A stretch of DNA of 42,708 nucleotides, from the NCBI GenBank assembly GCA_964016885.1, contig CAXHJY010001161.1, positions 1 to 42,708 of the forward strand, read 5' to 3'. How positions within the stretch are numbered: position 1 is the stretch's first letter; every line of letters begins with the position of its first letter. Shown here in pieces: positions 10,231 to 37,345 of this stretch. Under the pieces are notes generated by a model that was given only the letters and a program-made list of their open reading frames with translations, was not told the DNA's origin and searched no databases. The translations under genes were made by a program, and so were the position numbers. The DNA comes from Eledone cirrhosa (lineage: Eukaryota).

Positions 10231-10424
10231 TGAAAAGATTCAGGACCCCAACGGCTTAGCTCCGGCCGTTTCGACAGCTAGATCCCAGTTCGGATCTAAC
10301 TGTCGAAAGGGCCGGAGCTCAGCAGTCAGGGTCCTGAATCTTTTCATATTACCCACTCTACTACCCCAAGTATCGAGTACTCTGGTGGGTGATGGTCTAG
10401 CTGGTTTTTACCACACCCTATCTG
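10231..10424. mobile_element. Fold-back PLE-like fragment with hammerhead 3' half
   Basis: Arms 10231-10285 and 10292-10346 plus a 3' extension, between (TA)n tracts. Same family as 22965-23005, 23740-23866 and 23909-25612. Confidence 0.75.
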
Positions 10425-10545
10425 ATATATATATATATATATATATATATATGTAGGAGGTGAGTTTTATTGTAGTACAATAAAGCAATGCAGATATCGG
10501 ATAAGAAGCACTCTACAGTTTGTAGGACTGGAGTATACATAATAT

Positions 10546-10763
10546 ATAAGAACAAAAGATGGTTAAATGAGTTCCATGTATTTTATTATGCGCATTTCAT
10601 ATGTTGATTTAAAACTGCACTATCCACAAGTGTTTTTTAACCTTCATATCATGTCTTCCTGTTTTATCTGATGAAAACACAAATATTATTTCATGATGAT
10701 ATTTGTTTTTGAAATGCGCATAATAAAATACATGGAACTCTTTTAACCATCTTTTGATCTTAT
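10546..10763. mobile_element. Fold-back PLE-like element (54-bp arms)
   Basis: 10546-10599 is inverted at 10710-10763; the right arm abuts (TA)n. Confidence 0.75.
10662..10728 (+). ncRNA. Minimal type I hammerhead ribozyme
   Basis: TTTTAT-CTGATGA-[aaacacaaatat...atatttgttttt]-GAAA-TGCGCA-TA-ATAAAA, with a palindromic loop III. Confidence 0.85.
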
Positions 10764-11180
10764 ATATATTATATATATATATATATATATATATATATAT
10801 TATATTATATATATATATATATATATATATATTAATATATATATATATATTATATATATATATATATATATATTAATATATATATATATATTATATATAT
10901 ATATATATATATATATTAATATATATATATATATATATATATATATATATATATATATATATATATATATATATATATATATTATATTATATATATATAT
11001 ATATATATATATATTTATATATATTAATATATATATATATATTATATATATATATATATATATATTAATATATATATATATATTATATATATATATATAT
11101 ATATATTAATATATATATATATATATATATATATATATATATATATATATATATATATATATATATATATATATATATAT

Positions 11181-11452
11181 AAAGTCAGCTCAAAAGTGAC
11201 ACAGAGGAGACTGAGGTTGGCTGGACATGCTCACCGACATCCAGAGTTGACATTGCACTCAGTGCTCCTTTGGGAGCCCCTACATGGCCACACTAGAAGA
11301 GGAAGACCAAGGTTAACATATGTTGATGCCCTAAGGACAGACACTGGTCTGTTGGAGATGCAGGATATGGCAGCGATAATGAGGGACAGAGACTGCTGGA
11401 GAGAACTCGTCCATGGATCTCGGGAATTTTACCCGCCTTAGATTAGATAGAT
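11181..11452 (+). mobile_element. RTE-clade LINE 3' fragment
   Basis: Translates RRLRLAGH...LLWEP...RRGRPRLTY...RDCWR, a typical RTE ORF C-terminus, followed by a TAGAT tail; embedded in (TA)n. Confidence 0.85.
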
Positions 11453-11583
11453 ATATATATATATATATATATATATATATATATATATATATATATATAT
11501 ATATATATATATATATATATATATATATATATATATATATATATATGTGTGTGTGTATATATATATATATATATATATAAGCG

Positions 11584-11695
11584 GCGTCCGAAACGTTAAG
11601 ACCCTCTTCCTGCTATATCAAGCGTTAACCGAATATATCCAGAAATAACAACACAATAACGGTACAGTATATGGAAGGAATATATTAGGTTAACG
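11584..11695. mobile_element. Rearranged fragment of the 19579 hammerhead family
   Basis: GCGTCCGAAACGTTAAGAC... in forward orientation, then an inverted copy of the family's distal tail. Confidence 0.7.
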
Positions 11696-34579: not shown

Positions 34580-34581
34580 AT

Positions 34582-36172
34582 CATTACTGATAAGAAAAAA
34601 ATCAAAATTTATTCAGTTTGATATTGATGAATATTATTCCTCAATTTCACCTGATACTCTACATGAAGCTCTTTCGTTCGCTAAGGATAATTCCGACCTT
34701 ACGGATGCTGAAATTAAAATTATTATGGAAGCGAGAAAAACTATAGTTAAATTCGATGATAGCTACTGGGTTCGCAAAGATAGACCTTCTAATTTTGATA
34801 TCACTATGGGTTCTAATGATTCGGCGGAGGTAACAGATCTTGTGGGAATTTATATCACCCACAGATTACAAGGAAAATTCAAGGATCTCCACGGTGGAAT
34901 TTACCGTGACGATGCGCTCCTATTAGTTAAGAATATGAATAACCAGAATTTAGAAAGGATGCGTAAAAATATCAGAAAACTTTTTAAAGAACTAGGATTA
35001 AATATTACATTTGAATATAACCTCAAAGAGGTCAATTTCCTTGATGTTACTTTCAATCTCAATACAGATACGATTAAACCGTTCCATAAACTAAATGAGA
35101 ACCTTAAATATGTAAATACGAGTTCTAACCATCCACTCTCTATAATTAAATCCATCCCTAGAAATGTTTCTCTTAGAATCTCCCGCCTATCGTCCAACCA
35201 ACAAACCTTCAAAGAACATGCCGAGTATTATGATGATGCACTTAGGAAAGCCGGTCACCTAGATAATATAGAGTATATAGTCAATGATCACCAAAACACC
35301 CAAAATAAATCACATAGGAGTAGAAATAGCACAGAATCACCACCATACATACACTACCGCAATAGACACAATAATAGTCGCACACCACCAAACAGAAGGC
35401 GATGTAAGGAGTATATCTGGTACAACCCGGTCTATAACAAATCTATTAAAACCAATCTACCCTCAAAATTCTTTCGATTAGTTAGAAAACACTTTCCAAC
35501 ATCACATAAATATAATAAAATCTTAAACCCTAACACCATCCGACTTTCATATTCAACCGCCCCTAATATTGAACAACATATAAAAATGCTTAACGCAAAA
35601 CGGTTATATAAACGCCTTCCAACACATAACAATACACGTAAAACATTAGCTATAACATCACAAAACAACAAACAACATCCTGTTCTACATAAGCAACCTC
35701 ATCAACCCATCCATGGCAATACAACAACGCAAAATTGTAATTGCAACTGTGTCCAACCAGGAATGTGTCGTTGAACAACCAGTGTCTTGAACGCAACATC
35801 GTATACAAATGTACTATCGAATCGGATAGACAGAAGTGGTACTATGTGGGATCTACAGCCACCTCCTTTAAATCACGCCTTTATAGACATCGTTATTCGA
35901 TAAAACATGAAAACCAGCGTTATGTAACAACACTCGCAGACAAGGCTTGGCAGCTGCGTGAAAATAACCAACAATTTCACCTAAAATGGGATATAATAGC
36001 GACTGCCCCCCCATATTCCAATGGACAGGAATTTTGTAGATTATGTAATGTAGAATTATTTTGTATTATGAAATCCAAAAACATTTTATTAAATAACAGA
36101 ATAGAGCGATCGTTATACTGTAACCATCGCTTAAAATCTACATTTTCATATTATAAATACTACCAGGATTGA
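34582..36172 (+). pseudogene. Mirror copy of the Penelope-like ORF with two 1-bp indels
   Basis: Matches the minus-strand copy apart from an extra A in the run at about 34595-34601 and a missing C at about 35769, which splits ORFs 34725-35774 and 35741-36172. Confidence 0.88.
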
Positions 36173-36645
36173 ACGCCTGTCTCTATCCCCGTTTGATTGT
36201 CAAAATAGATATGAACATTCTTTATTAGTCTTAATTCTATCAACTCTTCTATTATTTACCTTTTAATACAAACTGCTATAGATAAAATGAGATTTCTGAT
36301 TTTTTGATTCAATTCCCTAGAGCAAATACCAGCTGACCACTAGCATTGATGTTATTTAGTAGCAATCGAAATCTCCCCCTTCCCCAATTGACACTTTATG
36401 ATTAATACTACTGCACCAAATGACCAGCCCTGTCCACTGTCCAGTTGGTCAAGTAGAGATTAAAATCGGCACCCCCAAAATTCTTATTTAGATTTACTCA
36501 TGGTATTCTCATTAAAAACCCATTATATACTTGTTTAGCAGTAAATTATTTTACCATCTGTCATATTCTATCCCCTCTGTTCCTTCCTCTTTTACTAATA
36601 TAAATACTTCAATTTTTCTGATTTTATCCAGTTTATCCAAAATCT

Positions 36646-36754
36646 CTGAAGAAGTGACAACTGATTATACATTTGCTATCGAATACTTGCTAACATTATA
36701 TGATTACGCAAGCAGCGATACATAGGTATTCGGTCTGTTACAGAAACATATGTC
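36646..36754 (+). ncRNA. Hammerhead-like core in the PLE 3' terminal repeat (mirror at 32397-32505, minus strand)
   Basis: CTGAAGA-A-GTGACA...TGTTAC-A-GAAA-CATATG-TC. Loop III is palindromic, but stem I pairing is poor. Confidence 0.5.
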
Positions 36755-36974
36755 AATACCTAATAAATTCCTTTTTTAACAAAAGCACTTTCATTTTATA
36801 TTCATCCTTTCTACATTTCTCCGGAATATAATTTATACTCGTTGAGCAAACCTGCACGTACGCTGTTCATCTCTAACGTAACGATATATTATCACTACAT
36901 TATTGATAACCTGAAATTTATATATATATATATATATATATATATATATATATATATATATATATATATAATAT

Positions 36975-37345
36975 ACGTGGGAAAGTAAAAAATCGGAGAA
37001 TAGACCGTTAAAACATGTTTATTTAAAATATCACCTACGTACGTTTCGCCCAGTTGGGCTTCTCAAGCCATAAGGAACACTTGTGATTATTTATGCCCTT
37101 GAGAAGCCGAACTGGGCGAAACGTACGTAGGTGATATTTTAAATAAACATGTTTTAACGGTCTATTCTCCGATTTTTTACTTTCCCACGTGCTTACGCTC
37201 TGCTAACTCTCTAGCCCACTAAATATTAACACTTCGAATATTTAATACTGCCGGCACTAGTATAGAGCACCTTTGGCATACGCTACTTGGCAAATAACTA
37301 TATGTATCACCTATCCCTCCTTTTTCTCTCTTTCTCGATACGTAA
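36975..37345. mobile_element. Fold-back PLE-like element (93-bp arms) with U3-A8 hammerhead
   Basis: Arms 36975-37067 and 37098-37190. TTGAGAA-GCC(C/G)AACTGGGC-GAAA-CGTACG-TA-GG at 37099-37131. A 3' extension follows, then (TA)n. Confidence 0.8.

Follow-up and report, generated by a model that had tools for sequence, protein, structure and literature searches.

The DNA analysed here (hereafter the window: 42,708 nt, contig CAXHJY010001161.1 of Eledone cirrhosa) is AT-rich animal DNA, densely set with microsatellites, and carries an SRP RNA gene at 4522-4810. A first-pass annotation had listed seven inverted repeats in it, and masked self-BLAST together with arm alignment recovered every one of them (7/7), with arms that are 89-100% identical (Table 1). 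The measured arms (~50-2230 nt) and spacers (6-1138 nt) agree with the ranges of 53-2232 bp and 6 to ~1140 bp given by that annotation, and four further repeats of the Penelope-like element (PLE) type beyond its list (1870, 23064, 29028, and 31756) were found.

Table 1 Inverted repeats and associated features of the window. Letters serve as short names for repeats; numbers in brackets are the positions by which they are called in the text.
Feature	Position	Strand	Arms, spacer, identity	Tail and hairpin	Hammerhead and remarks
Repeat A (1870)	1870..2098			21-nt extension; hairpin inside both arms	Exception; short arm off (TA)n
Repeat B (10231)	10231..10424		10231-10285/10292-10346; spacer 6 nt; 89%	Tail 10345-10424 on +; hairpin 10355-10378	Half hammerhead
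Repeat C (10546)	10453..10760		~10546-10599/10710-10760; spacer 110 nt; 95%	Tail 10453-10548 and hairpin 10534-10510, both on - copy, not continuous with spacer	Complete hammerhead of type I on +, with core at 10668 and cleavage after 10722; (TA)n at 10761 bounds the short end
Repeat E (16541)	16545..17465		16545-16623/16724-16802; spacer 100 nt; 99%	Hairpin 16815-16838	Tail interrupted by fragment ~16879-17446, presumably LINE-like (label by eye), with 8-bp duplication
Repeat G (23064)	23064..23445			Long hairpin 23332-23391, outer A-C mismatch	U3-A8 hammerhead variant at 23168 within spacer; short arm stops at another repeat's TA, not at a (TA)n run
Repeat H (23512)	23515..23715		23515-23564/23572-23621; spacer 7 nt; 98%	Tail 23622-23715; hairpin 23632-23677	Half hammerhead
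Solo tailed copy, B/I family	23741..23873	-		Hairpin 23797-23774	
Repeat I (23985)	23908..25609		23988-24229/25368-25609; spacer 1138 nt; 99%	Tail 23908-23987; hairpin 23979-23956	Hammerhead core degenerate; 24616-24806 in spacer taken to be a SINE-like repeat
Remnant J (28503)	28503..28578				Related to the two ends of repeat K
Repeat K (29028)	28969..29479		29028-29223/29288-29479	59-nt tail on - copy; without GCTC-type hairpin	Full hammerhead, core 29291
Second copy of repeat H arm end and tail	30838..30968	+		Hairpin 30885-30930	Same final base before (TA)n
Repeat L (31756)	31603..32068			Hairpin 31684-31665	Full hammerhead on -, core 31792; right arm broken by a presumed SINE-like repeat
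Giant palindrome (32338)			32340-34572/34579-36811; spacer 6 nt; arm bodies without substitutions, two 1-nt indels		
Giant, left copy	32340..34582	-			533-aa frame; continuous with spacer; short end at (TA)n
Giant, right copy	34582..36918	+		Tail 36812-36918; hairpin 36818-36847, degenerate, its outer pair mismatched (U-C)	Same sequence plus two 1-nt homopolymer indels; degenerate hammerhead 36646-36754
Repeat N (36975)	36976..37345		36976-37073/37091-37189; spacer 17 nt; 98%	156-nt tail; long-loop hairpin 37197-37268	U3-A8-type core

The listed repeats share one asymmetric geometry, much as the annotation had described it. The 3′ half of the hammerhead core (GAAA..UH) faces outward in 7/7, judged by eye, and in 7/7 one arm stops at a microsatellite, which at 10231 is the (TG)n stretch of a compound microsatellite whose (TA)n begins 9 nt away. 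The second arm is extended by 80, 96, ~88, 94, 80, 107, and 156 nt, respectively, in order from 10231 to 36975. Independent copies possess the same tails, with end points that coincide or nearly coincide (30838-30968 with 23512; 28503 with 29028; the solo copy at 23743 with 10231/23985, ~14 nt shorter), so the tails are element sequence and not flank. Three loci are exceptions: the inverted repeat 15808/16026-16200 has symmetric ends, each flanked by TA, the short arm of 1870 does not stop at (TA)n, and the element at 11580 is arranged tail-to-tail. The hammerhead is whole, or almost whole, in 10546, 16541, 23985, and 36975 and present as a half only in 10231 and 23512; a strict scan of the window returned three cores, the others being read by eye, and Rfam gave no hammerhead among the 150 window matches listed out of 205. 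All six short listed repeats combine a whole or half type I hammerhead in the terminal repeat, a truncated inverted copy, and a one-sided tail, and they are without coding sequence. A non-LTR retrozyme, as defined in 10.64898/2026.07.22.740005, was rejected for lack of tandem hammerhead units among the repeats.

The giant palindrome at 32338 discloses what kind of element is involved. Its 533-aa frame comprises a 5′-truncated RT, a thumb, and, at its C terminus, a GIY-YIG EN, with YRDD and IVY..YVG motifs; the protein has 63 homologs, one of them labelled Octopus sinensis, and neither RT nor EN was matched by a Pfam scan on its own. Compared with the Hydra-clade definition described in PMC8557442, the alignment reveals a CxCX5C linker, no CCHH, and CxxC + CxH flanking a conserved E and N, while N-terminal RWK and DKT are found in full-length homologs, the giant copy being 5′-truncated. 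Both core boxes and helix II of its hammerhead are present and helix I is not formed, and the strict scan did not pick it up. The element is inserted in (TA)n, as Hydra elements are (PMC8557442). The linker, the lack of CCHH, CxxC + CxH, and (TA)n insertion are shared with the Hydra clade, Hydra-1_Obim included, and by ORF layout, motifs, and (TA)n insertion the giant element is a predicted Hydra-clade PLE. In its hammerhead region it departs from the sequence given for Hydra-1_Obim, and it is therefore another family.

What sets the position of the arm ends? Tabulating them against the hammerhead cut site, as the first-pass annotation had proposed, yielded distances to the short end of ~17, 38, 49, 75, 29, 18, 158, 57, and 61 nt (good to ~1 nt). 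With no fixed distance in a spread of ~17-158 nt, the hammerhead is not the ruler of the arm ends, and we discarded its cut site as the anchor. A bulged hairpin, by contrast with this variable distance, lies 6-14 nt beyond the short end in 7/7 listed and 8/10 measured repeats, against a background of 322/50140 positions (0.6%), for a pattern that was loosened after the data had been seen and with several hairpins using A-U for the outer G-C pair. The seven listed repeats amount to at most six independent cases, since 10231 and 23985 belong to one family group. A stricter, pairing-based descriptor gave 16 matches in the window vs 1.8 in shuffles; the hairpins of the giant and of 23064 fail it. 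At 29028, the two-end geometry comes with the best twin product and without a GCTC-type hairpin. The shared hairpin suggests that the six short repeats, too, may be placed in the Hydra clade.

The same hairpin recurs, often in duplicate, in a related set of 78 Hydra-type loci from metagenomes, taken from the best 80 of 477 matches. The pattern GCTC-N4-24-GAGCAC (GCTC...GAGCAC) has 80 sense matches in 45 of the 78 loci, 6 antisense, and 2.1 in shuffles. Among ORF starts with a 150 nt leader, 33/41 have at least one hairpin and 21/41 have two; paired hairpins, separated by 55-83 nt (median 64, n=23), usually stand just before the start codon, with hairpin 2 roughly 12-35 nt ahead of the ATG in most pairs. 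The first pair above the 2-nt UY bulge is Watson-Crick in 66/66 distinct sequences (45 C-G, 20 U-A, 1 G-C; shuffle mean 36.8, from shuffles that ignore the relatedness of the sequences), the next pairs in 48/66 and then 35/57, and slid registers are at chance. The two main pair types are spread over 13-18 of the 23 clusters (70% identity) that carry the motif; positions of the stem that lie outside the search pattern covary. Wobble at two positions (G-U 9 vs A-C 2) favours folding on the sense RNA strand. The loop varies from ~4 to 60 nt, and the patch upstream of the hairpin is A/T-rich and G-poor.

The end rule holds in these loci as well. Of 43 (TA)n ends examined, ten had a second copy, two of these being simple-repeat noise, and the remaining eight lie 6-13 nt before a hairpin—five before hairpin 1 and three before hairpin 2 (six by the pattern and two with one mismatch by eye; several from short-read contigs). 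The motif is visible in the published consensi Hydra-1_Ajap, -2_Ajap, and -2_Amil and degenerate in -1_Crog. A term search of the main text of PMC8557442 found no mention of the hairpin, nor did we find it described in the open-access literature; Rfam gave no match of any kind in the 7 of 78 related loci tested, and no relatives were found in viral contigs for an out-of-sample comparison. A twin hairpin lying a fixed distance from the two classes of end is thus apparently undescribed. Within the window, hairpin 2 was not visible for any family. Window tails measure 59-156 nt, longer than the 55-83 nt hairpin spacing of the related loci, and would end just before an unseen hairpin 2, which would not be carried over into the insertions.

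That the repeats are MITEs or assembly artefacts, with the giant palindrome an in-silico mirror, strikes us as exceedingly improbable. MITEs and DNA transposons in general were rejected on the geometry, fixed symmetric TIRs and a fixed length being absent: the arms run from ~50 to 2230 nt and are asymmetric, with 15808/16026-16200 the only symmetric case. For the giant, an artefact would explain arms free of substitution differences and a centre that no read or contig was seen to bridge in the runs searched, which probably stem from other individuals or species. Yet the mirror halts at the element end, the flanks differ, and the ends obey the same rule as in the small, diverged repeats. Head-to-head junctions also occur in the related loci L012, L028, and L068, run X2 contains a strand-switch contig, and Penelope-13_HM has a 966-nt inverted copy (PMC8557442). 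The annotation's view that the giant palindrome is biological is therefore, on these indirect grounds, likely to be correct.

Records from other runs bear on the history of the two giant copies. Compared with copies from other runs, the window has ten differing sites that both arms share, six of them silent, and both indels are in the right arm; this pattern fits either polishing or a recent insertion that derives from a single source copy. In two run X2 contigs, a loose end extends the frame of the left copy to 34582, so it is the left copy, without a tail, that is continuous with the spacer. Summed contig depth in run X2 halves over the tail, which is suggestive only, such depth being no copy number. 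Pile-ups in run X14 (36632, 36769, 36830, and 36918) were rejected as element ends: all fall at AATT or a one-base variant, in a reduced-representation library.

The annotation had proposed a single mechanism across families, either two priming events at a (TA)n break or a fold-back during second-strand synthesis. The two primings gained support, whereas fold-back did not prove general. In the fold-back scheme, the 3′ end of one cDNA would turn back, frequently within hammerhead helix II, so that the cDNA copies itself, and the asymmetry would arise because the copy stops short. Self-priming has been proposed for rotifer PLEs (PMC3846280), and the 6-7 nt spacers of 1870, 10231, 23512, and the giant are in line with it, as are the centres of 10231 and 23512, which directly precede GAAA, and the giant junction, where 3/4 bases could pair around a 6-nt loop. 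However, fold-back needs the tail to be on the copy that is continuous with the spacer. This is so in 1870, 10231, 16541, and 23064, but in the giant, 10546, and 29028 (the last judged from spacer composition) the tail is on the other copy, so that fold-back cannot have templated it there. Nor can fold-back produce the remnant 28503-28578, in which the final 32 nt of the short arm of 29028, in antisense, and the distal 48 nt of its tail, in sense, are joined by a 3-nt overlap, with no shared template; this remnant may be read most simply as two primed pieces. Finally, fold-back does not explain why the short ends should lie 6-14 nt ahead of a hairpin. As a general rule it is refuted; it is possible for 1870, 10231, 23512, and 36975, and as an account of the repeats at large we rate it improbable.

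The hairpins might instead mark where something is cut, with EN resolving a longer cDNA/DNA intermediate, or a nuclease trimming RNA, at a fixed distance from each hairpin, so that one end would keep the tail and the other would lose it. Craig et al. (PMC8557442) proposed EN-mediated tail resolution, recognition of plasmid DNA by the EN of fly Penelope depended on the tail (work cited in PMC11167929), and cutting predicts identical end-to-hairpin distances. We nevertheless hold this to be unlikely: the wobble pairs point to folding of the sense RNA, the loop length is highly variable, the anole protein starts directly at two sites bounding the tail (PMC11167929), and the remnant 28503 is simplest as two primed pieces. 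Very unlikely, in our estimate, is a role of the hairpins in translation or RNA handling near the start codon, with ends falling nearby because the AU patch pairs with a (TA)n primer. Such a role would suit the location of hairpin 2 shortly before the ATG, the A/T-rich, G-poor patch, and some TA overlap at the short ends, which is modest overall (sum 25; 206 of 20000 random draws). But the overlap is merely 1-2 nt in 10231, 36975, and the giant, and AT-rich patches abound elsewhere, yet the ends hold a narrow distance to both hairpins.

Starting from the geometry, the hairpin, its pairing, and the fixed distance from the ends, all of which are directly observed, we think it probable that the repeats are insertions of EN-bearing PLEs, mostly of the Hydra clade, primed upstream of two hairpins. 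The template RNA would pass from the 3′ end of one unit into the leader of the next, presenting in order the hammerhead, hairpin 1, hairpin 2, and the start codon. The RT-EN protein, perhaps as a dimer, would bind each bulged hairpin, both strands of the (TA)n run would be nicked, and two cDNAs would be primed, one for each hairpin, on the AU-rich patch that lies 6-14 nt upstream of it. A cDNA begun before hairpin 2 would have a tail that includes hairpin 1, and one begun before hairpin 1 would be tail-less. Both cDNAs would stop early and be joined head to head via a 1-3 nt overlap, each then templating the second strand of the other. Protein binding to the hairpin and priming in its vicinity are steps that we infer from sequence patterns. 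The more specific proposal, namely that the duplicated, covarying hairpin positions a telomerase-like RT at two start sites, with the tail corresponding to the inter-hairpin spacing and the whole amounting to programmed twin priming by two RT-EN units, has in our judgement an even chance of being right. Against the favoured reading, 1870 and 11580 depart from the rule, 29028 has the geometry without the hairpin, the TA overlap at short ends is modest, and the window tails exceed the hairpin spacing of the related loci.

How the inverted copies and one-sided tail of PLEs arise has been named an open problem (PMC8557442). The geometry alone was already known, and the hairpin anchor is what looks new: an RNA signal that is conserved, duplicated, and set a fixed distance from the ends offers a concrete, testable account of the tail. 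If true, the hairpin would be the RNA anchor of an RT whose sister is telomerase. It could also help, as a simple marker, to annotate the numerous non-coding hammerhead stubs that invertebrate genomes contain.

Head-to-head copies, a one-sided tail, and (TA)n targeting are the PLE architecture described in PMC3846280, PMC8557442, and PMC11167929. In common with other EN+ PLEs, the repeats have copies head to head with their 3′ ends outward, a tail on one end or the other, short palindromic junctions, and microsatellite targets. EN+ PLE insertions are described as an inverted, 5′-truncated copy plus an optional tail of 30-40 bp (PMC3846280, PMC8557442), whereas the tails here reach 59-156 nt and most hold the conserved bulged hairpin. 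In vitro, the RT of anole Poseidon starts at two internal sites between which the tail lies, and both target strands, AT-rich in that system, were cut and extended; RT started without homology, RNA downstream of the start sites was needed, and hammerhead cleavage was not required (PMC11167929). The tail region also differs in what it encodes, being untranslated leader in the related Hydra loci and ORF start in rotifer and anole Penelope.

L1 twin priming, in which two primed cDNAs are joined head to head by microhomology, provides the other comparison, and the remnant 28503 has this form. The pieces of an L1 twin-priming product do not overlap, and its second site is variable; in the repeats described here, by contrast, neither site varies and one arm is usually a duplicate of the other.

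Three Penelope-like element (PLE) copies of the same family, at window positions 10289, 22966 and 23864, are 5′-truncated within helix II of the hammerhead, at points that differ by a few bases along the element. Because these truncation points nearly coincide, they suggest a site at which the reverse transcriptase stalls or the RNA starts. Within the centre of the inverted repeat at 31603–32068, 20-bp units in both tandem and inverted orientation form a nest (31811–32014), as if this stretch had been copied back and forth repeatedly, over several rounds.

The window holds further hammerheads, hairpins and other repeats, listed below.

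Additional features of the window
Feature	Window positions	Score
Hammerhead family without the bulged GCTC hairpin	11580–11694; relatives 19535–19690, 14657–14940	
U3-A8 core variant in hammerheads	23168–23247, 37099–37129	
Solo hammerhead stub, (TA)n run on each side	16257–16417	
Terminal, symmetric inverted repeats (TIRs) with TA flanks, 28–33 bp	15808–15835, 16026–16058, 16167–16200	
Additional solo hairpins	37894–38150, 5965–5985	
Metazoan SRP RNA gene	4522–4810	200 bits
Abundant SINE-like family	9966–10154, 24616–24806, 27807–28005, 28180–28293, 32067–32189, 40956–42281	

In contrast to the other window repeats, the hairpin-less copy at 11580 has its 3′ ends inside, that is, tail-to-tail. 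Among 78 related Hydra-type PLE loci from metagenomes (drawn from the best 80 of 477 hits), L015 and L022 each hold a pair of distinct elements that face each other tail-to-tail across a shared (TA)n run, and L024 is a full tandem. The solo stub ends 36 nt past the cut site, and the solo hairpin at 37894–38150 lies 72 nt from a (TA)n end, on the minus strand. The family that we take to be SINE-like includes tandem copies clustered head-to-head in its last listed interval.

The left end of the TIR element, presumably mariner-like, occurs twice and its right end once. This symmetric element serves as a control for the pattern seen in the PLEs, head-to-head copies with one end at (TA)n and a tail at the other.
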